Below are positions 450 through 16,231 of a stretch of 32,000 bases of DNA, piece after piece. The stretch is from NCBI GenBank assembly GCA_019090615.1, contig JAHRVQ010000052.1:65938-97937 (forward strand), in the 5' to 3' direction. The notes under the pieces are model-generated. The model ran no database searches and was not told where the DNA came from. It worked only from the letters and a program-made list of their open reading frames with translations. The translations under genes and the position numbers were made by a program. The DNA comes from Pseudomonadales bacterium. Lineage in GTDB: Bacteria; Pseudomonadota; Gammaproteobacteria; Pseudomonadales; Azotimanducaceae. Position 1 is the stretch's first letter, and every line of letters starts with the position of its first letter.

Positions 450-2522
450 ATGAAAACCCCGTCAATTATGCTTTTATTGGTCTTCATGGCAGCCTTTGGT
501 GCAGTGCTCGAGGCTGAAGAAATTAATATTCCCCTCTCTGAACTCTCACTCGCAGAGTTGATGAATATAAAAATTTCCACGGTCGGTTCTGGTTTTCAGG
601 AAAACAATCTTGACGCCGCGTCATCCATTGAGGTTATTGAAACCAGTGACTGGCAAGCCACGGGGGCACGCAATTATTGGGATGCCATTGGCCATATTCC
701 CGGCATGTTAGTTACCACTAGCCTGCTGAGTTCCGAAGCACTGGTTTATCGAGGCATCTCGATTGCACCCGGCACCCATACCACAGCCATGATTATTGAT
801 GGCGTGCCGGTCAATAGCCTATTACATAGCACCGGTTTCTATCATCTCAACAATATTGGGCTTACCACCCTGTCCAGAATAGAAATGATTCAAGGCCCAG
901 GTTCAGCCCTTTATGGCGCCGATGCCCTGCAAGGGGTTTTATCACTTCAGACCAAAATAACTGACAATACCCATACGAGGTTTGAGAGCGCTATAGGCCA
1001 TGAGGCGTATTATCAGTACGCTGCCAGCTTTGGCCGACAACTCAGCGAAAACCTAACCACCGGCCTGGCCTACGAATATAGTAAATCGCTACCCAATAAG
1101 GTGATCTTCTTTGATGCCAATGGCGGTAAGTTCTCAGCCGAGCGGGACACTCGATACGCACTCGATATGCCTAAAAAGGCCGAAACACTGACTGCATTTA
1201 TGAACTATTCACCCAATGCCAGGCTTACCTTGCACAACTCCTTTCTGCTCAACAAAACCAGTGAGCTGGTGAATCGTTTCCATAGTAATCGGCCACTACA
1301 TAATTTCCTGGAGGGCGAGTTTTACCTGGCCCAGTCGAAATTGGAATATCAGCTTTCCAACCAGCTTCAGCTCGAAGGTCAAGTTTATTATTGGCAAGGC
1401 GGCATTACCTGGGATTTTTTTCAGCATGATCCCATCACCCAACAAAACTTCAATACTGTTAATCGTTTCGATGCTAAAGACCATCGTTACGGCGCTGATT
1501 TCCGCATCAAAGCAAATAGTCAGGGTCAACGTTTACGCTGGCAACTCGGCCTCAGTGTTTCTACCACTGAGGCTGACAAATTCACCCGAGGCCTGGTAAC
1601 TAACCCACCAATCGAACAGGGCTCAACTGGACATCGGCGCGACCTGAACAGTATCTATGGCGAAATTCGAGCCGCTATTTTAAAGCACAGGCTGGATATC
1701 GTAGCGGGCGCAAGACTGGATAACTATTCTGATTTTGGCCAACAATTTTCACCAAAATTAGGCCTGATTTACCGTCTCTCAGAAATTTCACGTCTCAAAC
1801 TTTTATACGGCTATGCATTTCGCGCCCCTTCAGCGTCAGAGATTGCCGTAGAACCAGCGCCTGGGGTAGGCGGCGCTTTTGGTAATCGCAATCTAAAACC
1901 AGAGACCATCGATACTTATGAACTCATCTATATGAAAAACTGGCCTGCCCAGTATATCGAGCTGATCGCCTTCTATAACAGGATAACCGATGGCATATTG
2001 CAGGATGGTTTGCCCACCAACGATCCACGGGCTAATCTCGACCCTGAAATTAACGCCAAACAAACCGTACGCACCAACGGCGCCGATTCGCACTCATACG
2101 GTATGGTCTTTAAGCACGGGCGATCATTCAACCAGTGGCGTATCGACACCAACCTGACCTATGCCAAAGGCAAAAATACCACCGCTGATTACGCCTATGA
2201 CAGTTACCCCACCTGGATCGGTAATATCAGTATTTCTTATTTATGGCGGAGTGATTTTAAAATTTCGCTGATCAATCGAGTTGCTTACGATCGCACTACT
2301 TTCCAAAGCAGAAATACTACCGACAATCCCACAAAAACCGCAGACTATTATCGAACCGACCTTAATATCAACAGCCCGATTGGCAACAACTGGCAAATCA
2401 GCTTTGATGTACGCAACCTGCTGAATAAAAAAAACTTACACCAGGCCTCCTACCAGGGCGAAACCCTTAAACCCGAACAGGGACTCTCGGGCTGGCTAAC
2501 TGCCAGATATACCTTCAACTAA
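450..2522 (+). CDS. TonB-dependent outer-membrane receptor
   Basis: 690-aa ORF with signal peptide MKTPSIMLLLVFMAAFGAVLEA. Plug-domain motifs are present (IEVIETSD, RIEMIQGPGSALYGADALQGVLSLQTK). A long beta-barrel-like region follows, with alternating aromatic/polar repeats, ending LTARYTFN. Confidence 0.9.
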   Translation: MKTPSIMLLLVFMAAFGAVLEAEEINIPLSELSLAELMNIKISTVGSGFQENNLDAASSIEVIETSDWQATGARNYWDAIGHIPGMLVTTSLLSSEALVYRGISIAPGTHTTAMIIDGVPVNSLLHSTGFYHLNNIGLTTLSRIEMIQGPGSALYGADALQGVLSLQTKITDNTHTRFESAIGHEAYYQYAASFGRQLSENLTTGLAYEYSKSLPNKVIFFDANGGKFSAERDTRYALDMPKKAETLTAFMNYSPNARLTLHNSFLLNKTSELVNRFHSNRPLHNFLEGEFYLAQSKLEYQLSNQLQLEGQVYYWQGGITWDFFQHDPITQQNFNTVNRFDAKDHRYGADFRIKANSQGQRLRWQLGLSVSTTEADKFTRGLVTNPPIEQGSTGHRRDLNSIYGEIRAAILKHRLDIVAGARLDNYSDFGQQFSPKLGLIYRLSEISRLKLLYGYAFRAPSASEIAVEPAPGVGGAFGNRNLKPETIDTYELIYMKNWPAQYIELIAFYNRITDGILQDGLPTNDPRANLDPEINAKQTVRTNGADSHSYGMVFKHGRSFNQWRIDTNLTYAKGKNTTADYAYDSYPTWIGNISISYLWRSDFKISLINRVAYDRTTFQSRNTTDNPTKTADYYRTDLNINSPIGNNWQISFDVRNLLNKKNLHQASYQGETLKPEQGLSGWLTARYTFN

Positions 2523-2526
2523 TAAA

Positions 2527-2672
2527 TGAAGACAGCCTTGAGCGAATTAACAGCCCTGAGCGAAATCAAAAGCCTTGAGCGAAATCAAAAGCCCTGAGCG
2601 AAATCAAAAGCCTTGAGCGCATAAACAGCCCTGAGCGTAAAGACAGCCCTGAGCGTAAAGACAGCCCTGAGC
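2527..2672. repeat. Tandem array of about 8 units of 18-19 bp (core AGCC[CT]TGAGCG) between convergent genes
   Basis: Direct reading: gacagccttgagcg aattaacagccctgagcg aaatcaaaagccttgagcg aaatcaaaagccctgagcg aaatcaaaagccttgagcg cataaacagccctgagcg taaagacagccctgagcg taaagacagccctgagc. Confidence 0.85.
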
Positions 2673-2691
2673 TACACCCGTAACGTAAGTC

Positions 2692-4131
2692 CTATTGACT
2701 CCAGCGTTTAGCTTCCGCCAGCGACTTGGTATAGGCCGGCAGGCAATACCAGAACAGACCTGCCGCAACCGGATAAAAAAGAATGCAGGCGGTGGCGATG
2801 GAATAATGTAGCAAGTTATCGTCCTGGTAGAGAAAATCGGTAAATGCCGCCAGCACACTGCCACCTAGTGCCATACCAATCATACTGGTAGAAAATATAT
2901 ACACCGCCGTCACCTGGCCACGCATCTGATTAGGCGTGATTTCCACAATAGATACCGCCATTAAGCCAAGATACGAACCGGATAAAAGCACCGCTGGCCA
3001 TAATAACCATAAGGTGGTTTGCGCCTCACCTGACAAGGGCGCCAGGGTGGAAAACGGGATGGCAAGCACCGACGCAAAAAACATGGTGCGTACATTCGCA
3101 TCCTCGTAACCACGCTTACGCAGTAAACTCGCACACCAGGTGGCCAACATAATGCCAGCACTACCCGCCACCAGGATTATAATACCGAACGACGCCCCAG
3201 CTTCACTTTTTGACATGCCATAGTTACGGGTAAATAGTTCAGGATACCAGGCACCACTGCCATATTGCGCCATCGCCATCATCGATGAACCCAGTAACAA
3301 ACAGAGATAAGTGCGGCGCCTTTGCCAAATAAAATCAACCACTTCTTTAAAGGGGATTTCTGTGGGCACTTCACCATTTTTTGCGATCAGGCCTTTACGC
3401 GTGGGTTCCTGAATGGTCAGGAACAACAGACTGAGTAACATGCCCGGCAGGCCAACACTTATTATGGTTGCCTGCCACGGCTTAATCACACCGATATAAG
3501 CTAATTCGATCACCCCAAGGCTGGCGTAATAATCATATAAAAAACCACCCACCACCAGTGCAAGCCCGCCACCAATCTTGACCCCGAGCTTATAAAAAGA
3601 CATGGCAAAACCAACGTGTTGCGGCCTAAAACTATCCAGAATCAGCGAATAGGCAGGCGGTGATAAACCTGCTTCACCCGCACCCACACCCATCCTGGCG
3701 ACAAATAGCTGGGCAAAGTTTTTAGTAAAACCGCAGGATACGGTCATGATACTCCAGAAGAATACCGACCCAGCAACAATCATGCGGCGAGAATATTTAT
3801 CTGCCAGTCGGCCCAAAGGCAACCCGGCGACCGCATATAAAATCGCAAAGGCCGCACCCGCTAACAGGCTATATTCAAAATCTGTTATACCGAAGTCTGC
3901 CCGGATTGGGCCCACCAGCAGCGCCAGTATCTGCCGATCAATAAAGGATAAAATATAGGCAGAAAATAATAACCCAAGACAATAGCTGGCAGAGCCCAGG
4001 CCCGGATAATCATCTTCGGCCACCGCTGCTGTTGCGGTGGCACTTGTATCTGTGGCACTTGTATCGGTAGCGCTGGTGTCAGTTGCACTGGTTTGGGTAC
4101 TGGTTTCTAGTTCTGATTCGGATGCAGTCAT
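2692..4131 (-). CDS. MFS transporter with a repeat-containing N-terminal tail
   Basis: 479-aa ORF with about 12 hydrophobic segments. It carries the MFS loop 2-3 signature GLPLGRLADKYSRRMI. The N-terminus holds TDTSATDTSATDTSA. Confidence 0.9.
   Translation of the reverse strand: MTASESELETSTQTSATDTSATDTSATDTSATATAAVAEDDYPGLGSASYCLGLLFSAYILSFIDRQILALLVGPIRADFGITDFEYSLLAGAAFAILYAVAGLPLGRLADKYSRRMIVAGSVFFWSIMTVSCGFTKNFAQLFVARMGVGAGEAGLSPPAYSLILDSFRPQHVGFAMSFYKLGVKIGGGLALVVGGFLYDYYASLGVIELAYIGVIKPWQATIISVGLPGMLLSLLFLTIQEPTRKGLIAKNGEVPTEIPFKEVVDFIWQRRRTYLCLLLGSSMMAMAQYGSGAWYPELFTRNYGMSKSEAGASFGIIILVAGSAGIMLATWCASLLRKRGYEDANVRTMFFASVLAIPFSTLAPLSGEAQTTLWLLWPAVLLSGSYLGLMAVSIVEITPNQMRGQVTAVYIFSTSMIGMALGGSVLAAFTDFLYQDDNLLHYSIATACILFYPVAAGLFWYCLPAYTKSLAEAKRWSQ
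4039..4083 (-). repeat. 15-bp in-frame tandem repeat x3 encoding (TDTSA)3 in the MFS N-terminus
   Basis: The plus strand reads ggcacttgtatctgt ggcacttgtatcggt agcgctggtgtcagt. Confidence 0.7.
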
Positions 4132-4350
4132 AACGCAAAGGTATTATATATTGAACTATATTGTTACTACTTTTTTCATCATGTACAAGGCCGTCGCCTG
4201 TTAGCCCCCGTCAGGACATCGATAATCTACCAGCAATACGTCTATTTGGAGCCATTATTGCCGTTAGCCTTATGGGTAAATGCAGATTTTTGCGATAAAA
4301 ACTCGCAAACTAAAAAAGGATAAAAGGGAAAAAGCGAAAAGGGTAAAGCG

Positions 4351-7065
4351 TTAGAGTGCCCTGGCGACGCGAAAACCCACCCTGATGCTCGCTTCAACGG
4401 TATCGTCCCTATCGCGGTTCGCGGACCGCAAATTCGCAGGTCTGTTGAACCAGCCACCGCCGCGCAACACCTGCCGGGCGCAAGCGCCCTTATCCGTAGG
4501 CCAGGCTGATTCATCATCCGGCGCCCCCTTATAAGAACTATGCCAACAATCCGCCACCCACTCCCAAACGTTACCATGCATATCAAATAGACCAAAGTTG
4601 TTGGCTATAAAACTGCCAACGGGTGCTGTCTGGTTGTTAAATCCATCCTTTGGCCATCCATATCGTTCATCGCCATTGGCATGTTTACCACTGGGCGCAT
4701 CGCCCCAGCTATAACGGGTTTGGGTACCTGCTCTGGCCGCATATTCCCATTGCGCTTCGCGGGGCAGATAATAGGCTTCGCCCGTTTTAGTGGATAGCCA
4801 TTTAACATAGGCGGCGGCGTCCAACCCGCTAACATTAATCACCGGCCGCTTAGCACGCCCCCAACCCCTGTCAGCTGGCAGCTTTTTACCTTCTGCCAGG
4901 GCAAAGGCATCATATTCCTCAAAGGTCACCTCAAAGCGGCCCAGGGCAAAGGGTGCTTCTATCGTCACCTTATGTGCTGGCCCCTCATTTTCTTCACGGC
5001 CCGCCTCGTCTTTTTCTGAGCCCATTCTAAAAACTCCAGCGGGTATCACCACCATAGCAGGACAAAAACTACAGTCGGCAAAAGTATCACCGGCTGCATA
5101 ATCAGCTTGCGCGGGTTTTTTAGGGTTTATTACTGGTTGTTTTAAAGTACGAATTTGCGCTTTCAAGCTGGCTATGGTGCGGTTTTTTGAGTCAATAATG
5201 GCCTGTAACTTCTGGTCCGTGCTGGCATTACCGCCAACCTCGATCTGTAAGGTTTTAAGCTGTAAGTTCAAAGCAGCCACCTGCGTATTTAGCGCGGTAT
5301 TAACCGCCCCAATTTGCTGTTGCGAAAGTTCCGCCGCAACGGCCTCCTGTTCCTGTTGGTCAAGGATTTTTGTTAATTGCTGGCTGGTGATATCGGATCG
5401 TCTTTTTTGTGCTTCATTAGCTATTTGTTCCGCTCGTCTGGCGACTGTTTCGGCGGATTTTGCCTGCCAGGCATAAAACCCTGCGCCACCAACTACCAGT
5501 AAAGCAAGACTTAAAAGCACCAAAACCGCCTTCACTGTTTTAAGCGACTGGGCCTGGCGCTGGCTTTGCTGTCGATCTTTTTCAACCTGCGCATAGTGGC
5601 TGGCGCTTTGTTGCAACAGATTGTCAACCGCCGAATAATGCTCACCCGCCTCGGCTGGCCAATGCCCTGGAGTGAGAAAAAGATTGGCCCAGGGCTTATT
5701 TTGCGTTGGCCACCATAATTGTCCGGCGCGGGTAACCGTCGATGACAAAAAACAGCTATTATCTGCCGCATAGGCCGTTGCACCACGCACCAGATCGTTA
5801 TAAAAACGCCGATCCATTTGCTCCTGGGCCAGCCAACCGGTTTTAACCTCGGCCAGGCGGTGCCAATTGCGTATCAGCGCTTCATGGCTAATATCAATAA
5901 GGGTATCAGGTTGCAATGGGCTACCATAAGGTGGCATCAAAAAATTCACCCCTGGCAGGCTAAATATCTGCACCACATAGGACAACAGCGCAATGTCAAC
6001 CTCTGCCATTGCCGCGATTTTGCTTAGACTTTGCGGCGCGCGTGTTTGTCGGCCATCCTGATCAACCGCCGTAATACAGCGGAAAATTCGCGCAGCTATC
6101 GGCTGCAGGTCCTGCTCAGCTGCCGCGTCAACCGCAAGCCCGGTGTAGATTTCATCCGCATGTCTGGATAACGCTTGCGCCATACCACCAATGGCCTGGT
6201 AGTCATCGATATCCAGGTAATCAGGCTGTTGGCCCACTTCCCAGGTCCGCATCAGGGCATGCTGCATTACCGGCAAATGATCAGGGTCATCCCCCACCTC
6301 GGCAATAATCTGCTGCACCAGCGTTGGTGACATTTCACGCCCGGCGCGTAACGCCGGTTGTTCAATAGCAATACGGCGTTGCTGACGATTCATCCTTGGT
6401 ACCAGAAACTGGCCGGCATTAATTACCTCGGGCAAACCGGAAAAACGGGTACAGTCGCCCAAAAAGTCAAGCCGGGTCGTCAGCATAATATGTACCGAAC
6501 AGGTTTGCTGCAGATCAGCCTGCACCGCACGGATTAATAATTTAACGAACCGAGTTGCTTCTTCCCAGGCCGCTGGCCCGGCCTGGTTAGCGAAGCGAAA
6601 TACTTCTTCAAACTGATCCACAATCACCAGAAATTTTGTTGCCTGGGCATTTTCTTCGATCACCTCTGCCAGGCCATTACTGCTACTTAATAACAACGCC
6701 CTGGTGCGCATAAATTCCAGCTTGCTCAGATCAAAACTCGCATTGTCGGTTGCCGGTCCACGCTGAGTACGGTTATCGATCTCCAGCAGGGCCTGGGTTA
6801 ATACATCCATTGGCCTGGCCCCCGGGCGCATCACCAGCCATTGCCAACCACCGTTGCCCTCCAAACGAGGCAATAGACCTGCCCGCACCAACGACGATTT
6901 ACCACAGCCAGACGCGCCCACCACGGTAACAAAACGAGTATTATCGAGCTTGCTGGTCAGGGTTTGTATCTGTTCCTCACGACCAAAAAAATTCGCCCTG
7001 TCCTGGTATTCAAAGGGCCGCAAACCCGGATAAGGATTACCCAACACAACATTCGTACTAGGCAT
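4351..7065 (-). CDS. STAND (nSTAND-type) P-loop NTPase, single TM helix, coiled coil, C-terminal FGE/SUMF1-like domain
   Basis: 904 aa. The N-terminus NPYPGLRPFEYQDRANFFGREEQ, Walker A VVGASGCGKSSLVRAGLLPRL and Walker B FLVIVDQFEEVF are typical of novel-STAND NTPases. One hydrophobic helix (VKAVLVLLSLALLVVGGAGFYAW) lies near residue 520. A Q/A/L-rich heptad region follows. The C-terminus has GNVWEWVADCWH, VLRGGGW and GFRVARAL. The start overlaps the upstream TIR gene stop by 8 nt. Confidence 0.85.
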   Translation of the reverse strand: MPSTNVVLGNPYPGLRPFEYQDRANFFGREEQIQTLTSKLDNTRFVTVVGASGCGKSSLVRAGLLPRLEGNGGWQWLVMRPGARPMDVLTQALLEIDNRTQRGPATDNASFDLSKLEFMRTRALLLSSSNGLAEVIEENAQATKFLVIVDQFEEVFRFANQAGPAAWEEATRFVKLLIRAVQADLQQTCSVHIMLTTRLDFLGDCTRFSGLPEVINAGQFLVPRMNRQQRRIAIEQPALRAGREMSPTLVQQIIAEVGDDPDHLPVMQHALMRTWEVGQQPDYLDIDDYQAIGGMAQALSRHADEIYTGLAVDAAAEQDLQPIAARIFRCITAVDQDGRQTRAPQSLSKIAAMAEVDIALLSYVVQIFSLPGVNFLMPPYGSPLQPDTLIDISHEALIRNWHRLAEVKTGWLAQEQMDRRFYNDLVRGATAYAADNSCFLSSTVTRAGQLWWPTQNKPWANLFLTPGHWPAEAGEHYSAVDNLLQQSASHYAQVEKDRQQSQRQAQSLKTVKAVLVLLSLALLVVGGAGFYAWQAKSAETVARRAEQIANEAQKRRSDITSQQLTKILDQQEQEAVAAELSQQQIGAVNTALNTQVAALNLQLKTLQIEVGGNASTDQKLQAIIDSKNRTIASLKAQIRTLKQPVINPKKPAQADYAAGDTFADCSFCPAMVVIPAGVFRMGSEKDEAGREENEGPAHKVTIEAPFALGRFEVTFEEYDAFALAEGKKLPADRGWGRAKRPVINVSGLDAAAYVKWLSTKTGEAYYLPREAQWEYAARAGTQTRYSWGDAPSGKHANGDERYGWPKDGFNNQTAPVGSFIANNFGLFDMHGNVWEWVADCWHSSYKGAPDDESAWPTDKGACARQVLRGGGWFNRPANLRSANRDRDDTVEASIRVGFRVARAL
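4450..4648. repeat. Near-identical 199-nt block shared with 10341..10539 (inside FGE-like domain coding sequence)
   Basis: By-eye alignment shows only a handful of mismatches over 199 nt. This is far above the identity of the rest of the two genes. Confidence 0.8.
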
Positions 7066-8698
7066 CGGTATCCTCGAGGCCGTTTTTACTTGAAGGGCTA
7101 TGGTTGCCAGGGCGCTGACTTAAAGCGCTATGCGCTCGTTGAATATCTGCTGTGCGCGTCTTCAGCCTATCGATAAAAGGCTGAAACATCGTACTATCCG
7201 CCCCTTTGATGACATTAATCACGGTGTCAACCGCCGGACTGCGGAACAGGCTTTTTTGCCCGCTTTCAGGCGCTGCCAGGATCACAGCCGTTACCCCAGT
7301 GCGCGTGCCTGGGTAATTATCAGCAGCCAGATCGCGGCCCTGTAATATCATTAGTTGCTGCTGAAAATCTGCATAGGTCTGACTCCCATAATGCAGCAGC
7401 ACAGCGTCACAATGTTGTAATTGCGCCGCCTGATGTTGTGCCCGGGTATCAGCATCAGATTCAAAATCTGGCAATACCACCTCAACACCCGCATCAACCA
7501 ATATATTGTAGACAGGGGTCATTAACGCCAGGTCCTGCTGCGCATAATATAAATAGATCAATGGAATTTTTTGCTGCGCTGGTTCTACGGGCGCGGGTAC
7601 TATGGAGGTTGTTTTGATTGCTAACAGGGTATCAAGCACAGTGGTTTTCAGGTCTTCAAAGGGTTCACCATTAAGCACTTCATCATCAGGCTGTATATCC
7701 TGGTAGGTCTGCAGTTTTTCGATAAAGGATTTATGCCCAGGTTCTTTTACCTGCAGGTTTTTTTCCAGCCAGACGATACGTTTAATATCTGCTCCCTGTT
7801 GCCGGTGGCTAGCCACTAGATCAAACTGCTGGTGCACAATTGGCTGCGCCGCACCATCAGGGGTATTACCATCGGGAGTATAACCACCAGTTTGACCAAT
7901 CAGATGAATCGCCATGCTAGCCGACTGTATTTCTTCTTTGATACCCTGCAAAACCTGGTCTTGCTGCAGCGGCAGTAGCGGCTGTTGCGGCACCACTCGA
8001 TAACCATGGCTTTCGAGCTCATCACGAAGCTCCTGCCACCTGTCCAGCAGGTCATGGCTGGTGACTGCCAGATAGAGCGTTATTATATCGTTATCTATAG
8101 CCGGCACTGTATCTGGTACTGCAACCAGTGCATTTTCCGCTGTTATCGTAGATTTGATCGCTGCTAGCTGGTTATTAATCGACTTACCGAGTTGACGAAT
8201 GCCCTTCCAGTAGTCGCGGTGCAGATGTTCGCCAAAACCATCGAAGAACGGTATTTCATCGTTCTCCTGCTGATCGATATGAAAAAATTTGAAGCCGGTT
8301 TTATCACGGATCAAATCCGGCTGCAGCGCCAGATCCAGGTCCCTGATGAGTATTTTTTGAATGGCACCAGACTCGCCATCATGGCTGCTAACAAAGGCTT
8401 CAAACTCCTTCAAACAATAAGGACTATCAACCCAACAGGGCGATACTAAGGCTAAAAATACCGGTGCATCACGCACCGCATCCAGGATAACCTCATCAAA
8501 AAAAGTCACCGGGTCTATATCCCGCTTATCCCGCCATAACTCAAATGCCAGCGCCTGTTTGGTCAGCTCAATGCTCAGCGCACGATCAAAAAAATCCACC
8601 CAGCCAACAAAATTTTCACCCATGGGTGATTGATTATCGTCATGGGCATAACTTAAGAAAATCGTGTGCATAGCGTAGGCAGCGCTCCCCGATAGCAT
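7058..8698 (-). CDS. TIR-domain protein followed by two further TIR-like/Rossmann-like modules
   Basis: 546 aa. The N-terminus MHTIFLSYAHDDN...VFLALVSPCWVDSPYCLKEFEAF matches the TIR strand A, strand D and helix motifs, with a conserved Glu. Two later segments repeat the strand-helix pattern: ITLYLAVTSHDL...ASMAIHLIG and IPLIYLYYAQQDL...CDAVLLHYG. The true start may be the Met at 8671. Confidence 0.8.
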   Translation of the reverse strand: MLSGSAAYAMHTIFLSYAHDDNQSPMGENFVGWVDFFDRALSIELTKQALAFELWRDKRDIDPVTFFDEVILDAVRDAPVFLALVSPCWVDSPYCLKEFEAFVSSHDGESGAIQKILIRDLDLALQPDLIRDKTGFKFFHIDQQENDEIPFFDGFGEHLHRDYWKGIRQLGKSINNQLAAIKSTITAENALVAVPDTVPAIDNDIITLYLAVTSHDLLDRWQELRDELESHGYRVVPQQPLLPLQQDQVLQGIKEEIQSASMAIHLIGQTGGYTPDGNTPDGAAQPIVHQQFDLVASHRQQGADIKRIVWLEKNLQVKEPGHKSFIEKLQTYQDIQPDDEVLNGEPFEDLKTTVLDTLLAIKTTSIVPAPVEPAQQKIPLIYLYYAQQDLALMTPVYNILVDAGVEVVLPDFESDADTRAQHQAAQLQHCDAVLLHYGSQTYADFQQQLMILQGRDLAADNYPGTRTGVTAVILAAPESGQKSLFRSPAVDTVINVIKGADSTMFQPFIDRLKTRTADIQRAHSALSQRPGNHSPSSKNGLEDTDA

Positions 8699-8883
8699 AG
8701 TAGTTTTTATTCAAATGCTACTATATCAATAAATTACACCACTTTTACAGGATTGTGACTGGCTATTTTTCTGGGTGTTTTTAACCGGCGCAAGCCTCGC
8801 GTTATTAACGCCGTCGTCTACCCGCACCCTGGTGTATTCTTATTATCGATTCATCGCTGATCAAAACATGAACACGGCAAATA

Positions 8884-8897
8884 TTTTTTGGGGGGGG
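8884..8897. repeat. T6G8 homopolymer tract in the 279-nt spacer upstream of the TIR/STAND gene pair
   Basis: Direct reading atattttttggggggggtataac: G8 at 8890-8897 preceded by T6. Confidence 0.9.
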
Positions 8898-8977
8898 TAT
8901 AACAGATTCCCAGCTACTTTATTTTTGCGCTAATAATTTACTGCCTGTGCGTATGTAAAAGCACAAAGGGTAAAGCG

Positions 8978-10078
8978 TTAGAGTGCCCTGGCGACGCGAA
9001 AACCCACATCGAAGAACGAATCATCGGTAAGGAACCTAAGGCGGTTCGCGGACCGCAAATTCGCTGGTATGTCGTTCCAGCCACCGCCGCGCAACACCTG
9101 CCGGGCGCACTGCGCCCCATCAGCATCCAGCCAGGATGAGCCATCAACAGGCGCCCCAACATAACTATCATGCCAGCAGTCTGCGGTCCATTCCACGACA
9201 TTACCCGACATATCAGACAGCCCCAACAAATTACGTTGAAATGATCCACCTGACGCAGTATATGGATAACCATCCTCACAATCTGCAAATTCCTCAACGC
9301 CCAACTTTTTCGCCAGGGTTTCGTCAGCACCATTGGCATAAATACATTGTTGGTCATGGCCGGCGTCCTGACCCCAGTAATATGCCTCTATGCTGCCCGC
9401 GCGAGCCGCATATTCCCATTGCGCCTCTGACGGCAAATAATAATCAAACCCTGTCACCAGCGATAACCAGCGCGTATAGGCATTGGCATCACGCCAACTA
9501 ATACAGGTCACTGGATGAAGCCTGGTTTGTGGAAAACCCGGGTTACGCCAGTTACGATCCTTGCGCTGCTCGTAACCCTCCGCATCTGCATTAAATGCAT
9601 AGCAGCCGTTGGTCTCAGAATCAGCCTTATAACCGCTATCTTCCACAAAATCTTCAAATTGACCCAGGCTAACTTCGCACCGGCTGAGTGCAAAGGGTTG
9701 TTTAATGGTCACGCCATGTAATCTCTCATCAGGGTCACGGTCAGCTTCATTTTCCTCTGAACCCATATAGAAACGCCCTGACGGAATAATCACCATTTCA
9801 GGGCCAGGGGTTGCTTCTAACTCGGATATTGCCCTGTCTGTACAGGGCTTAGCGGGCAAGCTACCGGCAGGCTTAAAATCCACCAGGCTAGCATCCCTTG
9901 TTAACGGCCGGTCTGCTGGCTTCTTCCCCTTAGTAGACTTTTCTGGCCCCATTGCGATCGCGTCAGTAGGATAAGTAACCGCTATTATCAGGGGCATAAA
10001 TAATAAGACGCATAACCGTATAGTCGGCAATAAATGACAATCTTGCATCACCTTTAGGGTATTCGTTGAATCCTTCAT
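8978..10078 (-). CDS. Secreted or membrane-anchored FGE/SUMF1-like domain protein
   Basis: The ORF track gives 8978..10114. I prefer the ATG at 10078 (MKDSTNTL...), which is preceded by GGAGCAAATA. A hydrophobic leader follows (LLPTIRLCVLLFMPLIIAVTYPTDAIA). The FGE-like motifs are RFYMGS, WEYAARAG, GNVVEWTADCWH, VLRGGGW and GFRVARAL. Confidence 0.85.
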   Translation of the reverse strand: MKDSTNTLKVMQDCHLLPTIRLCVLLFMPLIIAVTYPTDAIAMGPEKSTKGKKPADRPLTRDASLVDFKPAGSLPAKPCTDRAISELEATPGPEMVIIPSGRFYMGSEENEADRDPDERLHGVTIKQPFALSRCEVSLGQFEDFVEDSGYKADSETNGCYAFNADAEGYEQRKDRNWRNPGFPQTRLHPVTCISWRDANAYTRWLSLVTGFDYYLPSEAQWEYAARAGSIEAYYWGQDAGHDQQCIYANGADETLAKKLGVEEFADCEDGYPYTASGGSFQRNLLGLSDMSGNVVEWTADCWHDSYVGAPVDGSSWLDADGAQCARQVLRGGGWNDIPANLRSANRLRFLTDDSFFDVGFRVARAL

Positions 10079-10241
10079 TATTTGCTCCAAACTTTTATGC
10101 GTCATCTGCCTCACATGGGCAACCTGTCAACCGCATTTGAACAACTGATAAAATTTATTTACCTGCCCAGAAAACGTTTTATAACCTGAGAAAGCGGTAA
10201 AGGTATAAAAAGAAAAGGGAAAAAGAGAAAAGTACCAAGGG

Positions 10242-13200
10242 TTAACGTGCCCTGGCGACGCGAAAACCCACAAGGCTGAACGAAGCACCGGAATTGATCC
10301 AATAGCGGATCGCGGACCGCAAATACGCTGGTTTGTCGTTCCAGCCACCGCCGCGCAACACCTGCTGGGCGCAAGCGCCCTTATCCGTAGGCCAGGCTGA
10401 TTCATCATCCGGCGCCCCCTTATAAGAATTATGCCAACAATCCGGCACCCACTCCCGAACATTACCATGCATATCAAATAGACCAAAGTTGTTGGCTATA
10501 AAACTGCCTACGGGTGCTGTCTGGTTACTAAATCCATCCGCTGGCCAGCCAAAATATTCACTACCATTAGCATGTTTGCCACTGGGTGAATCGCCCCAGT
10601 TATAGCGGCTACTGGACCCTGCCCTGGCGGCATATTCCCATTCTGCCTCTGTGGGCAATCGATAACTGGCGCCGGTCTGTTCTGATAACCATTCAACGTA
10701 GGCCGTTGCATCATGCCAGCTAACATTAATCACCGGTCGTTGGGCACGGCCCCAGCCTTCGTCATCTGGCAATGGGCGCCGGGTACTACGGGCAAATAAA
10801 TCATACTCGGCAAAGGTCACTTCCATCATACCCAGCGCAAATTTTCGGCTAAGGGTCACCTTATGTTGCGGACTTTCATCCTCGCGACGGCCCTCTTCCC
10901 CTACCGGCGAGCCCATCATAAAACTACCTACCGGTATGTTAACCATTCTCGGCCCCTGACCACCAACCAATAACGAATCACTGAAGGTGTTTGAGGGCTT
11001 AATAGAAGCAAAATTATCTGCAGACTTAAACTCTGTCAGTTGACCTGGCGACAAGTGATGTGCCCTGTTATCTTGCAGAATAACATCAGGGTTGGTTTGT
11101 GTGTTTGTTATACCTTCAGCGTCCTGCCATAAAACCAGGTTAATTTCATCGCTGGCCAGGGCAGTATCTAATGCCGCCGGCAAAAAACGCGCATAACTTA
11201 AATTATTCAGCCGCCGACGCACATATTGCACCTGTTGCAGGCTAACATTTTTGCCATAGGATAAGGGCTGCGCTGCCGGTCCAGTTTGCCGCAGGGCAAC
11301 CCGGTTGACGTTAAAACCGTGGCTGTATAATCGTGCTGCCAGTGCTGTAGCCAGCTTATTGGTGGTGGATGCTTCGATATTCACCACTAGATTACGATGT
11401 TGATTACGCTGATAATCCATCAACCAGTCTTGCAGCATAAACCCAATGGCCTTGTTATTTGCGGCAATACCCAACCCCAATAGCAGCGCCAGAATAAATG
11501 CTCTGGCGCCGTACAACATGGCCGTAAAACGCTGCAGGCCCGGCAGGTTGCGCGCCAATGTTTTACCCAGCCTGATATCAATTTTTTCTCCCCGGCCTAA
11601 CATCAGGCGGGCAAACACAGCATCGGAATAAACACTGGCAGGGGGTTTTGCTTCAAATAACACCCGCAGCAGATCCCAGCCACCATCCGCCTGGCGCAGT
11701 CTACGGCTCAGGTTTTGCCACCACTCACCTGCACCAGGGGGCAGAGCGATAGGCAGCACAATTTCACCACGGGTACTGCTGACACCCTGGAATAAACCCA
11801 GATAGACCCCCTTAACCCGGTCAACCTGCGCCGGTATCAATTCACGGGTTAGATCATCACGCAGCCAGTCGGGCATATATCCATGTCGGCACCAGGGCAA
11901 TTGAGCAATACGCAACATACGCTGTTCGCGACTGGCAGCGTCAGTTGCCTGGGGAAACAAACTACGATCCAGCGCCCGGGTCAGGCTCCAGTGAATCTGC
12001 GGATAGGCCGCCATGGCCCCCAGCAAGAACATACCCCTGCCATCAAGATAACTTTTAATCGCTGCCAGCATTGCACCGCGCTCGGCCTTTACCGGCGGCA
12101 GTGGTTGCAACAGCAAATCCTCATCCCGCAATAGATCCGGCAAGGGTATATAACCGCTATGCGGCGGGTTACGCGGCATCCGCTGGTTGCTCGATAAAGC
12201 GCTGTCCTGGGGGCTAGTTCTATCCAGGGGACGAAAGGGGCGCGCTATGGTTTTGGCCATAGCAACCAGACCATCGCTATCCAGCGCAGCGAGGCGAAAC
12301 CCCGCGGCTACAATATTGTTTTGAGTATCGTCAGCCACCTGGCTAGTATTCAAAATACCCCGCTGATCCCATACCTGCAGCTGGTCCGCCCAGTGATTTA
12401 AACTGCCGTCCCAGATATTAAACAGGATAGCCGGATCACCCACCAGGATAAGCCGCGAACCCCGATGCTGGGCCGCAATATCGGCCAATGAACGTAATCG
12501 ATGTTGCCCAAAGGCTTCACGCGCAAAACCTGGATTGTCACGATAATCAAAGCGGTGCACCGTTAAGCCGGCCTGTTCTAATAACGCCAGCACACGATCT
12601 GCCAGGCCAGCAATATGATCCTCCCGATGTTTAAACTCAGCCAGCAGGATAATTTCCGGAATTTCCTGTCGATCAGCATACACTGGCTGGAACAAGCCGT
12701 TAGCACGGATGCTGCTGGCCACGGTTTGTGCTTCATCCAGCCGTTGGCCTGGATAAAATACCGGCGTATGTAATGCCTTTAATGCGCGCCGCACTTGCTG
12801 GCTGGCAAATAGATCATCCACTGGCGCCCGCACCCGCAACTGCTGCAGTGGATTGGCCGGGTTAGCAGGCCCTTTGCGAAAGGCAATCCAGCGTTGGTAA
12901 TAACGCAACCCAAGCCATATAAAAGCCAGTATCAGGGGCGCCAGCGGCAACAGCCAACGGGCCGCATCCAGACCGCTTTGGTAGCCTGGCATCAGCAGCG
13001 GCGGATCAGGTTTTTTACGCAGCGGCAAGGGCTCAGGCTGGATCTGCAACCAGGCCAGTTTTTCACCCTCGGCTATACCCTCAGCGGATAATGAACCAAC
13101 AGTATCAGATGGTTGCGTCTTGTTAGACAGATCAATCACCGCAGGCGGCGCAATCTTGATAGCCGCAAATGGCCATCGACCGTAGGTCCAGTTATAACTT

Positions 13201-13664
13201 ACGCCAACCACCAACAGGATAAGCAGCATCATACTTAACAGCCACGTTGTGGGTCTGATCAACCTGGGCGTAGGTTGGGTTGATGCCGCCGCCAGCGGCG
13301 CATCCAGTACTTTGGTATGCACAAGTTTTGACGCTGCCCATTGCCGGCCTGTTTCGCGGTTAAGGTCCCTTACTTCAAGCGCCGGGTCTGTTTGATCAAG
13401 CCAGAGCTTCATTACCTCGGCAAAACTGGCCTGGTCCAGGGCACTTTTACAGACTAACGGCCCAATATAAGCACCCAGTTGCTGAGGCCGGGTGGGTAGT
13501 TGGTGGTTCAACTGAAGCTGTTGCAGCAGATCGTTTATATTAATCCAGGTGCCTGGGTCATGGCATAAATCGGCCGCCCGCAGCAACCGCCATAGCCGTG
13601 GCAGTCCATCTTGTAATAATTCATCGACGCTCAGGGTCGATAATTTAGGCGCTGACATCTGCAC
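10242..13664 (-). CDS. Large three-TM protein with an uncharacterised ~430-aa cytoplasmic region and a C-terminal FGE/SUMF1-like domain
   Basis: 1140 aa, with a GTG start at 13664 or an ATG at 13658. Hydrophobic segments are LLSMMLLILLVVGVSY, LLPLAPLILAFIWLGLRYY and AFILALLLGLGIAA. The C-terminal 250 aa are paralogous to the 904-aa protein (GNVREWVPDCWH, VLRGGGW, GFRVARAR). The gene starts 10 nt after the MoxR-like gene. Confidence 0.8.
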   Translation of the reverse strand: MQMSAPKLSTLSVDELLQDGLPRLWRLLRAADLCHDPGTWININDLLQQLQLNHQLPTRPQQLGAYIGPLVCKSALDQASFAEVMKLWLDQTDPALEVRDLNRETGRQWAASKLVHTKVLDAPLAAASTQPTPRLIRPTTWLLSMMLLILLVVGVSYNWTYGRWPFAAIKIAPPAVIDLSNKTQPSDTVGSLSAEGIAEGEKLAWLQIQPEPLPLRKKPDPPLLMPGYQSGLDAARWLLPLAPLILAFIWLGLRYYQRWIAFRKGPANPANPLQQLRVRAPVDDLFASQQVRRALKALHTPVFYPGQRLDEAQTVASSIRANGLFQPVYADRQEIPEIILLAEFKHREDHIAGLADRVLALLEQAGLTVHRFDYRDNPGFAREAFGQHRLRSLADIAAQHRGSRLILVGDPAILFNIWDGSLNHWADQLQVWDQRGILNTSQVADDTQNNIVAAGFRLAALDSDGLVAMAKTIARPFRPLDRTSPQDSALSSNQRMPRNPPHSGYIPLPDLLRDEDLLLQPLPPVKAERGAMLAAIKSYLDGRGMFLLGAMAAYPQIHWSLTRALDRSLFPQATDAASREQRMLRIAQLPWCRHGYMPDWLRDDLTRELIPAQVDRVKGVYLGLFQGVSSTRGEIVLPIALPPGAGEWWQNLSRRLRQADGGWDLLRVLFEAKPPASVYSDAVFARLMLGRGEKIDIRLGKTLARNLPGLQRFTAMLYGARAFILALLLGLGIAANNKAIGFMLQDWLMDYQRNQHRNLVVNIEASTTNKLATALAARLYSHGFNVNRVALRQTGPAAQPLSYGKNVSLQQVQYVRRRLNNLSYARFLPAALDTALASDEINLVLWQDAEGITNTQTNPDVILQDNRAHHLSPGQLTEFKSADNFASIKPSNTFSDSLLVGGQGPRMVNIPVGSFMMGSPVGEEGRREDESPQHKVTLSRKFALGMMEVTFAEYDLFARSTRRPLPDDEGWGRAQRPVINVSWHDATAYVEWLSEQTGASYRLPTEAEWEYAARAGSSSRYNWGDSPSGKHANGSEYFGWPADGFSNQTAPVGSFIANNFGLFDMHGNVREWVPDCWHNSYKGAPDDESAWPTDKGACAQQVLRGGGWNDKPAYLRSAIRYWINSGASFSLVGFRVARAR
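10341..10539. repeat. Near-identical 199-nt block shared with 4450..4648
   Basis: See the partner feature. The 3' flanks of the genes also share aaaagggaaaaag[c/a]gaaaag. Confidence 0.8.
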
Positions 13665-13674
13665 ACCGAGGCCG

Positions 13675-14811
13675 CTAAGCTGGCTGTAACCATTTGGTTA
13701 GCAGCCCCGTGGCATCAGCTTGAATTTCAGGGTTTTTCAGCAGGGTCAGCTTAACGGCCGCCAACACCTGCTGGCGCGGCTGCTGGTTTAATAATTTATC
13801 CTGATCCAGATCAAATGGGCGGTTTATGCTGCCGGGTAAAATAAGATCAAGGAAGTTAATCATTTCTGCTAGCCCAGGGCGACGGCTGATATTCACCGCA
13901 TCACTGCGCAAATACCGAAACAGGGCGGTAGCATCCCTGGCCAATTTAGAATCCTCAACAAAACGACTGCCAAGGCGTTGTTGGCATATTTTTTCTATGG
14001 TGACGATGGATTCACCGTCATTGCCATCGTTAGTCTTTTTATTATCCTTTTTATTATTCATCGCCACTGAGCCTTTAATGGCGTCCTCATTAAACGGTGG
14101 AAAGGTAAGATGGTAATAAACACAACGGCGTAAAAAAGCGTCGGGCAGATTGCGCTCTGAGTTACTGGTAATAATCACGATGGGGCGATATTTAAATTCA
14201 TCTTCGGTCAGTTCGACGCGCACTTCATGGCCAACAGCGCGTTCAAATTCTGGAATGCGGAATGCCATATCTTCAAGCTCAGTGAGGATATCGTTGGGTA
14301 CATCGCGGGGTGCCTTGTCAACTTCGTCAATCAGCACCACAGAACGTGACTGTTGATGCGCCTGTACCACCAACGCATCGGCGGCCAAATTTAACGCTGA
14401 GCCGGTTAAAAAACTGACAGGTTTTGAATTTAACAGCGCCAACCCCAGTGCTTCAAATTTGATATATCGTTGCGGTGTGGCATCACCGTCGGTGGAGGCG
14501 GCATGGAAGCGCCCCACCGTATCAAAGCGATAAAACAGGTCGGTTGCGCGGGTATCAGATTTGACCGCAAACACAAAAGGGTCAAGCAGGCCTAACTCCC
14601 AGGCGACCGCATCTGCCAGGCGTGATTTACCCGAACCTGGCTCCCCCGTTAGCAGCAGCGGCATACCTAAGGTGATCGCCACGTTAACGGCGGCGCTAAG
14701 ATCGGCTGGGGCACGATAGTTGGCCCCTGCGCGCATACGTGCCGGGTTTATTTCAGGTATTGCTATATCTGAGCTAGCCTGGCTGCCCTTGCCGGAGAAA
14801 TAGGATTGCAT
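13675..14811 (-). CDS. MoxR/AAA_5-like AAA+ ATPase
   Basis: 378 aa. Walker A is LLLTGEPGSGKSRLADAVA and Walker B is VVLIDEVDKAPRDVPNDILTELED. A sensor-like stretch reads PIVIITSNSERNLPDAFLRRCVYYHL. An AAGGAA ribosome-binding site sits upstream, and there are 10-nt gaps to both neighbours. Confidence 0.85.
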   Translation of the reverse strand: MQSYFSGKGSQASSDIAIPEINPARMRAGANYRAPADLSAAVNVAITLGMPLLLTGEPGSGKSRLADAVAWELGLLDPFVFAVKSDTRATDLFYRFDTVGRFHAASTDGDATPQRYIKFEALGLALLNSKPVSFLTGSALNLAADALVVQAHQQSRSVVLIDEVDKAPRDVPNDILTELEDMAFRIPEFERAVGHEVRVELTEDEFKYRPIVIITSNSERNLPDAFLRRCVYYHLTFPPFNEDAIKGSVAMNNKKDNKKTNDGNDGESIVTIEKICQQRLGSRFVEDSKLARDATALFRYLRSDAVNISRRPGLAEMINFLDLILPGSINRPFDLDQDKLLNQQPRQQVLAAVKLTLLKNPEIQADATGLLTKWLQPA

Positions 14812-14821
14812 CGGTTATTCC

Positions 14822-16231
14822 TTATAAAATTCTAGCCTGCTTTAATGAGTGCAACATATGCTTTTTAAGCGATTTATAACGCAGGCTGGTGCCCTCTGGC
14901 AGCGCATCATCAATACCAGTTTCTATTTTTTCGAGATCATAATATTTATCAAACTGCGCAATATCCTGATACCAGGATTCAAAATGCGCCAGCGATATTT
15001 CCCCCGGTGATGCTAGCCAGGTGGCATTGGTTGTACTTTCAATTTTCAGGTTTTGTCTATTTGCCCTGGCAGCGTCGGTTTCACGAATACAGCCAAAAAT
15101 AATCACCAGCCTTTTATGTCGTCGGTTGTTTTCTGATATGCCTTCAATTAACGCCTGGGCCGACTTAATATAACCATCAAGATAAGGTTCACTACGTTCA
15201 TCCAGTACCGTGTAGATAACTTTAATAGTCGGGTCAGAGCGCATCCACTCATCAAGGCCCGCAATTTTTTGTTCAATAGCCAAGTCTGCTTTAGTGTCCA
15301 AACGGCTGCCTTCTGGATTAGGTTGAGCACCATTATTGGCATTGGCATTGCTGCTGGTGCGAGATATCGCATTTTGCAGCATGGCGTGATAATGCGCTGG
15401 GCCACTGCCAGCCAGCACACTTAAAGCTTTTAGATTATGCCCAGGTTGCTGACTGGATATTGACACCGCACCCTGCCGCTGGCGTAAGATCACATGATCA
15501 GCAAAGGCAGCCAACGAATCTGCGGCCAGGTATTCAAGCAGAAAAATCAAACTGTCGTTACCCGTGCTATCACGGATGACTCGGTCGGTTTCGGCTAATA
15601 GTTTTTCACGATTAATCAACCGGATCAGCATTTGTTCTCGTGCCTCGAACTGGCTGCTGTCTGTTGTTGTAGGTTGCGATAGATTAGCCTGGTGTTGGTG
15701 TTGGTGCTGATGTGGATCGTGATCTTGATGCGGGTCGGTCTCAGCATTGGTCAAGCCTGCCGCAATTGGGCTATCGTCCGAGTGGCAATCAAGTTTATAT
15801 TGTAATTCTGCTACAAATTCACCGAATTTCAGCTCTTCATAGCGATAACAATTACGTTGACTAAAGGGCATTGGCAGTGCGTCATTTTCAAGCTCACCCA
15901 CCAGGATGGGGGAATATCGGCCTATATGTTCCGCCAATTCAATGTTTTGTTTAGCGGCACCGGCTTTATCCTGGCCCCAGACTAAATCTGCTTCCGACCT
16001 TACATGGTCGCTAGCAATCGCATTTTCTGACCATAATACCACCACCGCCCCAGCGAGCTTTACTCGTTTAGGAATCGCGTAGCGCCACCAGGCACCGCTG
16101 AATAGATCAATGTCCATAAATGTCTGAATACCAAAACCTTCTAGCTCCTGTCGAAACTTTAACGCGATCGCTTTATCCAGCCGAGAATAGCTGATAAACA
16201 CATAGGGTTTTGCTGGATCCAGGCGTTTCAT
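14822..16231 (-). CDS. TIR-domain protein with a His/Gln-rich linker and an uncharacterised C-terminal domain lacking a P-loop
   Basis: 469 aa. The N-terminus is PYVFISYSRLDKAIALKFRQELEGFGIQTFMD...AVVVLWSENAIASDHVRSEADL, which gives TIR strand motifs and a conserved Glu. The linker is DPHQDHDPHQHQHQHQ. No GxxxxGK[ST] motif occurs in the C-terminal 270 aa. Confidence 0.8.
   Translation of the reverse strand: MKRLDPAKPYVFISYSRLDKAIALKFRQELEGFGIQTFMDIDLFSGAWWRYAIPKRVKLAGAVVVLWSENAIASDHVRSEADLVWGQDKAGAAKQNIELAEHIGRYSPILVGELENDALPMPFSQRNCYRYEELKFGEFVAELQYKLDCHSDDSPIAAGLTNAETDPHQDHDPHQHQHQHQANLSQPTTTDSSQFEAREQMLIRLINREKLLAETDRVIRDSTGNDSLIFLLEYLAADSLAAFADHVILRQRQGAVSISSQQPGHNLKALSVLAGSGPAHYHAMLQNAISRTSSNANANNGAQPNPEGSRLDTKADLAIEQKIAGLDEWMRSDPTIKVIYTVLDERSEPYLDGYIKSAQALIEGISENNRRHKRLVIIFGCIRETDAARANRQNLKIESTTNATWLASPGEISLAHFESWYQDIAQFDKYYDLEKIETGIDDALPEGTSLRYKSLKKHMLHSLKQARIL

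Follow-up and report, generated by a model that had tools for sequence, protein, structure and literature searches.

A predicted membrane-spanning nSTAND1 receptor with a DGR-type variable FGE-fold domain and a TIR partner in a Pseudomonadales genome

The nSTAND1 clade of bacterial STAND proteins was defined together with the STAND-FGS systems, which carry TIR effectors and are linked to diversity-generating retroelements (DGRs; Kaur, Iyer, Burroughs, and Aravind, eLife, 2021; PMC8195603). FGS effectors linked to DGRs have also been described in MoxR-centred ternary systems (Kaur et al., 2020; PMC7159879), and it has been proposed that C-type-lectin (CLec) domains diversified by DGRs sense antigens in STAND and MoxR systems, with a periplasmic or secreted location predicted for some (Doré et al., PNAS, 2024; PMC10907252). 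FGS has been listed as an "antigen receptor-type" C-terminus of bacterial NACHT proteins, and NACHT proteins with transmembrane (TM) regions may sense intramembrane or periplasmic signals (Kibby et al., 2022 preprint; 10.1101/2022.07.19.500537). Here we analyse a stretch of 32,000 nt from a Pseudomonadales bacterium (assembly GCA_019090615.1, contig JAHRVQ010000052.1, positions 65,938 to 97,937; hereafter the window), in which a gene for a 904-residue protein (p904; NCBI MBV1878476.1; 4351..7065) joins an nSTAND1 NTPase, a predicted membrane helix, a helical stalk and a variable domain with the fold of formylglycine-generating enzyme (FGE). All genes and features named below lie on the reverse (−) strand of the window unless another strand is given.

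To our knowledge, every bacterial STAND immune protein studied by experiment so far is soluble and recognises phage proteins inside the cytoplasm. With the characterised antiviral members (Avs, bNACHT), p904 shares the logic of a sensor, a STAND NTPase switch and an effector; however, its NTPase belongs to the nSTAND1 clade, not to NACHT or Avs, and its effector is a separate protein. ToxR, CadC, and PknB-type kinases are single-pass N-in/C-out proteins in which a cytoplasmic catalytic or regulatory domain is followed by a helix and a ligand-binding ectodomain. Their likeness to p904 is a functional analogy only, with no sequence relationship, and the cytoplasmic module of p904 is a STAND oligomerisation switch.

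The STAND-FGS systems are closest to p904, with which they share the fusion of nSTAND1 to a C-terminal FGS domain, a neighbouring TIR effector, and an FGS domain of a kind that DGRs diversify. Those systems are described with an intracellular sensor and with an effector attached by N-terminal fusion or through a shared EAD/bDLD3 adaptor (PMC8195603), whereas the NTPase of p904 starts at residue 11 without an adaptor, its TIR partner is a separate three-module protein, and a membrane helix and a stalk stand between NTPase and sensor. Among the DGR target systems of clade 5 (Thiohalocapsa PB-PSB1 and relatives; Doré et al., 2024), clade 5A, with a TIR protein, a MoxR-like ATPase, a long target with an undefined N-terminal extension and a short CLec-only target, corresponds to the left half of the window locus, and clade 5D, like p904, has an nSTAND1-CLec target with TIR. 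The window differs from clade 5 in that both types stand side by side with a common variable-region scaffold, the predicted location of all three CLec domains is extracytoplasmic, and the cassette of Avd, reverse transcriptase (RT) and template is absent. Of the MoxR-vWA ternary system (Kaur et al., 2020), the window holds a MoxR-type AAA+ ATPase, but no vWA domain was recognised in the partner protein.

We consider it moderately probable that p904 is a bitopic inner-membrane nSTAND1 receptor coupled to a TIR protein, with a cytoplasmic STAND switch, a periplasmic stalk and a hypervariable binding module outside. p904 would be a further example of a kind of putative bacterial immune sensor described so far by computation. 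Because the general idea of DGR-diversified sensors coupled to STAND or MoxR modules, some of them predicted to be periplasmic, has already been published (PMC10907252), the gain is incremental: a single-pass topology across the nSTAND1 family, an adaptor-less and translationally coupled multi-TIR partner, a coiled-coil stalk common to the related proteins P0001, P0002, and P0006, three co-templated extracytoplasmic receptors in one locus, and the apparent loss of the DGR cassette.

Domain architecture and predicted membrane topology of p904

The p904 gene is an intact open reading frame (ORF) on a 159 kb contig of a Pseudomonadales metagenome-assembled genome, and the NCBI name "SUMF1/EgtB/PvdO family nonheme iron enzyme" gives a misleading picture of its product. 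Pfam PF20703 matches the nSTAND1 NTPase module (residues 11-435; 5761..7035) at model positions 1-374 of 379 (E=2.8e-90; 304 bits vs. a cut-off of 27.1). Walker A (GASGCGKSS, residues 50-58; 6892-6918) and Walker B (VDQFEE, residues 149-154; 6604-6621) are present, and an alignment of 51 sequences shows no variation at G50, S52, G53, K56, S57, S58, D150, F152, E153, E154, and H394; His394, in ISHEAL, is the conserved histidine of the STAND winged-helix region and is retained in p904. An AlphaFold2 model (mean pLDDT 85) has a compact and confident NTPase body at residues 10-470, with pLDDT above 90 for the nSTAND1 module, a single helix (475-524) that leads into the hydrophobic segment, long stalk helices (531-612 and 617-642) of low to moderate confidence, and a confident FGE fold at 660-904. 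Pfam, Kyte-Doolittle (KD) hydropathy and the model thus agree with the layout read from the sequence in the initial annotation, in which the NTPase is followed by a basic stretch, one hydrophobic helix, a stalk of ~110 residues and an FGE-like domain.

The basic juxtamembrane stretch QSQRQAQSLKTVK (residues 500-512; 5530..5568), predicted to face the cytoplasm, is followed by the predicted single TM helix AVLVLLSLALLVVGGAGFYAW (residues 513-533; 5467..5529). These 21 uncharged residues, flanked by charges on both sides, form the sole strong hydrophobic peak of p904 (mean KD score of 2.34 over 19 residues), and the position of the segment is conserved in relatives: it lies 425-490 residues past Walker A in 115 of the 120 best homologues. 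When the NTPase module alone was queried against 1.84 billion cluster representatives, 45,784 relatives were found at E<=0.001, and the top 150 (as 50%-identity clusters) were examined. The segment is at the projected position in 139 of these 150, 134 of the 139 show no other hydrophobic segment, and the median length after it is 668 residues. In named genomes, 79 of 81 nSTAND1 ORFs (80 loci) have it as well, and the many phyla represented include Acidobacteriota, Bacteroidota, Verrucomicrobiota, Planctomycetota, Cyanobacteria, and Proteobacteria. The domains behind the helix differ among relatives and include FGE, WD40 propellers, TPR, and PEGA/CarboxypepD_reg plus FGE; PEGA and CarboxypepD_reg domains are typical of extracytoplasmic proteins. 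The exact 904-residue protein sits in a 90%-identity cluster represented by a 35-residue protein, and this probably explains why the homologue search returned no self-match (best match, 48% identity).

The orientation had originally been argued from the positive-inside rule. That argument is weak in p904 alone, with four K+R in the 15 residues N-terminal to the segment vs. three in the 15 residues C-terminal to it, but it is strong across relatives: the corresponding means are 5.45 vs. 2.68 in the best homologues, where the N-terminal flank is the higher in 95%, and 5.6 vs. 3.2 in the family representatives. Moreover, the C-terminal half of p904 should lie outside because an N-terminal NTPase of 500 residues without a leader cannot be exported, and a single inserted helix would then carry the rest across. 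A cytoplasmic NTPase with an extracytoplasmic stalk and FGE-fold domain, as first proposed, is therefore predicted with good support in silico, from both the family-wide segment and the flanking charge. The same counts do not bear out the view that the arrangement is special to this gene: since the helix position is kept in more than 90% of the sampled relatives, it is the standard nSTAND1 layout and no peculiarity of p904.

Between the helix and the sensor lies a helical, locally heptad-patterned stalk, predicted to be periplasmic (residues 534-645; 5131..5466; 15% A, 15% Q, and 10% L). The heptad-like character attributed to it holds locally, in that the hydrophobic fraction at a and d positions of the best register in 28-residue windows is 0.67 vs. 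0.58±0.04 in shuffles, a value reached by 1% of shuffles, but not as a single unbroken register, a Fourier test at period 3.5 over the whole stalk being not significant. Stalks comparable to that of p904 are found in P0001, P0002, and P0006. The stalk of P0006 (8183-8518 of the related locus L003) consists of tandem 84-nt repeats, each of 28 residues or four heptads; these repeats lend support to a coiled-coil spacer of adjustable length in the subclade.

The C-terminal domain (residues 660-904; 4354..5088) has an FGE fold (C-type-lectin-like, PvdO-like), recognised by Pfam (FGE-sulfatase, PF03781; residues 668-902; E=6.3e-57), phmmer and Foldseek. The closest solved structure to residues 651-904 is PvdO of Pseudomonas aeruginosa (5HHA; phmmer 5.9e-55; Foldseek TM 0.88, rmsd 1.6 Å, 42% identity), a periplasmic protein; true FGEs come after it, and the DGR variable protein TvpA also matches (Foldseek E=7e-12). 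Neither PvdO nor the p904 domain has the FGE catalytic cysteines, and Cys665/668 and Cys840/862 of p904 align to cysteines of PvdO. However, PvdO is a stand-alone pyoverdine-maturation protein, the C-terminal loops of p904 are hypervariable, and the score of p904 against the NCBIfam PvdO equivalog (NF051459) is 227.9 bits, far under the cut-off of 500. The two catalytic, copper-binding cysteines of FGE (Cys336 and Cys341 of the human enzyme) are in a C-terminal loop. In p904 the segment aligned to the FGE active-site loop is RGGGWFNRPANLRSANR, with no cysteine, and the cysteine-pair loop reads WFNRPANLRSANR, exactly where the three paralogues of the window vary. TvpA (PDB 2Y3C) and Mtd of phage BPP-1 have the same C-type-lectin/FGE fold; their variable region, too, falls within the last ~40 codons, and their template logic is AAY-rich. 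They are displayed outside the cytoplasm, but as adhesins or receptor-binding proteins without a cytoplasmic signalling module. The FGE-like fold assigned at the outset is thus sound, but identity with FGE is not, given the missing cysteines and the DGR-type hypervariable end; the domain is better read as a putative DGR-type hypervariable, lectin-like binding domain of non-enzymatic nature.

Variable ends of the three FGE genes and the missing cassette

The window contains three FGE genes, which end at 4351, 8978, and 10242, and the last ~130 nt of all three are one scaffold, identical at 103 of 132 terminal positions and variable at the other 29. The variable regions (VRs) are VR3 at the end of the p904 gene (4354..4482), VR2 at the end of the gene for a short FGE-only protein (8981..9109), and VR1 at the end of the gene for an 1140-residue FGE protein (10245..10373). 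A 95-nt core, 28-122 nt before the stop codon and between two long invariant blocks, holds 27 of the 29 variable sites; the block on the 3' side is 25 nt long and stands just ahead of the last codon in all three genes. In VR3 the variable sites span 4381-4475, followed by the invariant 3' element GTGGGTTTTCGCGTCGCCAGGGCAC at 4356-4380. At least one copy keeps an A at 22 of the 27 core variable sites (manual count). Immediately upstream of the shared end, the p904 gene and the short FGE gene have no long DNA alignment, and the shared 3' ends are therefore not ordinary paralogue similarity. Conserved DNA continues for ~25-30 nt beyond each of the three stop codons.

When A is written at every variable site, the resulting inferred template, TGCGCCCAGCAGGTGTTGCGCGGCGGTGGCTGGAACAACAAACCAGCGAATTTGCGGTCCGCGAACCGCAATAGGAACAATACCGATGAAACGAACAACAAAGTGGGTTTTCGCGTCGCCAGGGCAC, contains nine AAY codons among 23, and such AAY richness is typical of a DGR template repeat (TR). 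Its identity to the real TR of the related locus L087 is 85.7% over 119 nt, and the adenine runs coincide. The TR of L087 (6821-6943) and its two VRs (5191-5313 and 8034-8156) adjoin genes for bAvd and an RVT_1 reverse transcriptase, and every TR-VR mismatch falls on a template adenine (14/14 and 15/15). Given the common scaffold and the match to the L087 template, the three FGE domains of the window are predicted to be DGR-type variable domains derived from one template; for the window, diversification is deduced from three paralogous copies and one homologous locus.

Searches for further copies gave none. There is no fourth copy of the scaffold in the window, and the invariant 24-mer of the scaffold, used to look for the TR of the source genome, had no match in a collection of genome contigs or in JGI metagenome contigs. 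A self-BLAST screen for adenine-biased repeat pairs in the window and 84 loci, a set from which L087 was absent, found none; a like comparison recovered the TR-VR pairs of L087. An ENA contig (ERZ23500266 scaffold_295) is 100% identical to the window and so holds no population variation at the VRs. Three ORFs of 117-139 residues (4242-4595, 8938-9357, and 10127-10486) are alike in sequence (MVYLICMV..., ...CCAAVAG...); they are VR/FGE DNA read in another frame and almost certainly a spurious by-product of the repeats. In L003, a conserved 73-nt segment after both FGE genes (9321-9393 and 13018-13090) holds a GC-rich hairpin, CCAGGGGGCGAAGCCCCCTGG. Hairpins of this type resemble those described downstream of DGR variable regions; no hairpin like that of L003 was found after the VRs of the window.

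L087 also suggests how the window came to have targets without a cassette. Its gene order is a TIR-tail protein, an AAA_5 ATPase, an 1140-residue FGE protein, bAvd, the RVT_1 reverse transcriptase and a 336-residue FGE protein, with Avd, RT and TR between the long and the short target (5320-7151); at that place the window has a gap of 127 nt (region 10028-10241). The short FGE-only protein of the window (8978..10114) has 378 residues if started at GTG and 366 if started at the ATG at 10078, with a leader-like N-terminus. Residues 16-29 of the 378-residue ORF (..STNTLKVMQDCHLL..) match residues 3-16 of L087 Avd (nine of 14 identical; pairwise E=1e-05). The simplest reading of this comparison is a deletion of the RT, the template and most of avd, by which the short target was joined to the start of avd. 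It suggests that the leader of the 378/366-residue protein is partly chimeric: the N-terminus is leader-like, as had been noted for the 366-residue form, but part of it appears to derive from the deleted avd. The 10 kb to the right of the window hold housekeeping genes only (CsrA, aspartate kinase, AlaRS, RecX, and RecA). Unless another DGR of the genome acts on them, the three receptors may by now be locked in their present form. The locus appears to be a DGR target set minus its reverse transcriptase, and bears on how long hypervariable repertoires stay plastic.

TIR cassette, proposed signalling and alternatives

The gene directly ahead of p904 encodes a 546-residue partner with a TIR_2 domain (residues 13-141), DUF4062 (209-276) and a second TIR_2-like module (381-443; gene at 7058..8698), and its stop overlaps the start of the p904 gene by 8 nt. 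Proteins 24-45% identical to it are encoded immediately ahead of nSTAND1-FGE genes in L002, L003, and L004, and in L088 and L089 other homologues take the corresponding place ahead of nSTAND1-WD40 genes. Of the 81 genomic relatives, 38 have a TIR ORF no more than 3 kb upstream of nSTAND1. On this comparison of gene order, TIR plus a predicted membrane-spanning nSTAND1 is a cassette of two genes that is conserved as a pair while its outer domain can be exchanged. L003 has two TIR+nSTAND1-FGE cassettes in tandem (5108-12999), the second with a SIR2_2-TIR partner. A PDB search with the N-terminal TIR domain of the 546-residue protein returned only insignificant poxvirus matches.

In the mechanism that we propose, an extracytoplasmic ligand would bind the variable face of the FGE-fold domain; a multivalent ligand, such as a phage particle, a phage protein, a toxin or a foreign cell-surface molecule, would fit. 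With sensor and NTPase on opposite sides of the membrane, the usual autoinhibition of STAND proteins by contact between sensor and NOD would be inapplicable to p904, and clustering or rearrangement of the stalk is the more likely mode of activation. Either of these, driven by the ligand, would bring the cytoplasmic NTPase modules together; NTP-dependent oligomerisation would follow and would recruit or activate the translationally coupled multi-TIR protein, which could degrade NAD+ or make a nucleotide signal and thereby cause growth arrest or cell death. Detection before or during genome entry, which the initial annotation had drawn from the topology, is one possibility; late periplasmic phage products, toxins and foreign cells are equally compatible. 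The compact TIR + nSTAND1 pair lends itself to asking if extracellular stimuli can drive a STAND switch, and offers a model for STAND activation without the usual autoinhibitory contact between sensor and NTPase.

Several observations weigh against this account of p904. The locus itself has no gene of phage origin, no phage or mobile-element genes are adjacent to it, and its flanks hold housekeeping or transport genes. No PADLOC defence model scores above noise, the best being LmuB, matched weakly (E=3e-05) along the coiled-coil stalk; the mad3 and mad8 matches of p904 are low-scoring and confined to the P-loop. Neither a template repeat nor a reverse transcriptase is present in the 32 kb of the window or in the 10 kb to its right, and the catalytic glutamate of TIR was judged by eye from the motif alone. 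As to topology, model confidence is low (pLDDT 43-82) across the membrane segment and much of the stalk, the charge difference between the flanks of p904 itself is the small one given above, and FGS has been described as an intracellular domain, as discussed below.

Among the alternatives, the one that fares best keeps the proposed topology and gives it a role other than antiviral defence: p904 would be a receptor for kin/non-kin recognition, or one that adjusts a regulatory pathway to ligands outside the cell, with TIR as a signalling output and not a suicide effector. The locus has no match to experimentally validated defence systems, its neighbours are chromosomal housekeeping genes, and the apparent loss of the DGR engine is hard to square with an ongoing arms race; kin recognition has been raised for DGR-diversified STAND systems (Doré et al., 2024; PMC10907252). 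On the other side, the cassettes swap FGE and WD40 sensor domains and occur in tandem in L003, as is typical of immune diversification. TIR, STAND and MoxR-like components together are, in addition, typical of conflict systems. Neither point is decisive, and we regard a non-antiviral role as unlikely, if by no means far-fetched.

Less probable still is that p904 is wholly cytoplasmic, with the helix buried or peripheral to the membrane and the FGE-fold domain sensing invader molecules inside the cell. The FGS domain has been termed an "intracellular invader-sensing lectin-like" domain (Kaur et al., 2021; PMC8195603), and the nSTAND1 targets of Thiohalocapsa DGR 1 and 6 are predicted to be cytoplasmic (Doré et al., 2024; PMC10907252). 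An FGE-bearing relative from Gallionella (L007) has a weaker hydrophobic peak (KD 1.36), and the charge asymmetry of p904 is, as noted, small. Against this stand 21 uncharged residues with a KD score of 2.34 and charges on either side, at a place that over 90% of relatives share regardless of their C-terminal domain, with an N-terminal flank that is consistently the more basic. In the AlphaFold2 model the helix is exposed between two globular parts and is not packed into a core. The periplasmic location of PvdO, the closest solved relative, and the PEGA-type domains in paralogous positions point the same way, and we hold a cytoplasmic p904 to be improbable.

That the C-terminal domain is a periplasmic SUMF1/EgtB/PvdO-type enzyme, perhaps for siderophore or sulfatase maturation with the adjacent transporters and with the NTPase as regulator, would agree with the NCBI name, with PvdO as the top PDB and NCBIfam match, and with the TonB-dependent receptor and MFS transporter immediately downstream, but it is very improbable: the PvdO model scores 228 bits vs. 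a cut-off of 500, the two transporter genes belong to another transcription unit and are both missing from the gene tables of related loci, and a conserved catalytic site is incompatible with the hypervariability among the three paralogues of the would-be active site, which reads WFNRPANLRSANR, and with the match to a bona fide DGR template.

The reading of p904 as a membrane-spanning receptor may be extended in two directions, which we offer together as a tentative view with somewhat less than an even chance of being right. nSTAND1 as a whole would consist of transmembrane NLR-like receptors that carry a variable C-terminal domain (FGE-fold, WD40, TPR, or PEGA) outside, behind one helix, often with a TIR gene ahead, and the present locus would be a coordinated set of three periplasmic "antigen receptors" written from one DGR template (one linked to STAND, one to MoxR and one free), its engine since deleted and its repertoire frozen. 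If the family-wide topology is true, outside-in signalling through a STAND switch would be common in bacteria, in contrast to the description of STAND-FGS systems as intracellular sensors. Conservation of the helix across the family suggests that receptors of this kind make up many of the entries labelled "formylglycine-generating enzyme" or "WD40 repeat protein."

Second module and surroundings

The MoxR-like ATPase, the 1140-residue protein and the short FGE protein are predicted to form a second module, with their FGE domains also outside. In the 1140-residue protein (MBV1878479.1; 10242..13664) the central domain is uncharacterised and the C-terminal domain is FGE (10251-10955). Three hydrophobic segments are found, at residues ~138-160 (13185-13253), 235-255 (12900-12962), and 715-738 (11451-11522), in agreement with the three TM helices originally predicted, but the second is weak in the only other homologue, P0262 of L087 (46% identity), with a KD score of 1.42; even there it is uncharged and followed by RYWRRWIALRR. 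In the 1140-residue protein, too, a basic cluster follows the second segment, from which the central domain is predicted to be inside and the FGE domain outside. The central domain has no sequence match in Pfam or the PDB, and no vWA domain could be demonstrated in it. An AlphaFold2 model from a two-sequence alignment was unusable (pLDDT 31.5).

The gene 10 nt upstream (13675..14811) encodes the MoxR-like AAA+ ATPase (AAA_5, E=1.3e-10; 378 residues), and is preceded by a gene for a 469-residue protein that has TIR_2 in its N-terminal part and an uncharacterised C-terminal part (14822..16231). The order TIR-tail protein, AAA_5 ATPase, long target is common to the window and L087, and the C-terminal tail of the 469-residue protein is conserved in the first gene of L087. 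An ORF of 153 residues (16434-16895), 200 nt upstream of the gene for the 469-residue protein, is called as a gene on the ENA contig too; it has no match in Pfam, NCBIfam or PADLOC.

Directly downstream of the p904 gene, at 450-4131, are genes for a TonB-dependent receptor (+ strand) and an MFS transporter (− strand); no evidence of a functional link to either was found, and neither is in the gene tables of related loci. A scan for promoters and terminators yielded no more candidates than expected from shuffled sequence. The G+C content is 0.50-0.555 over the FGE/STAND/MoxR cluster (4001-14000), vs. 0.44-0.48 in the flanking 14-19 kb and 0.46-0.49 on the left, a contrast that may mark an acquired island. 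Farther to the right, between 22700 and 29500 on the + strand, there are small ORFs with PEP-CTERM endings (22386-22850, weakly; 25188-25727; 26846-27616), with repeat families D1, D4, D5, D7, and D8 (intergenic or 3' segments) between them and then a RadC-like gene at 28854-29396. This run of PEP-CTERM ORFs looks like an array of paralogues that arose by local duplication.

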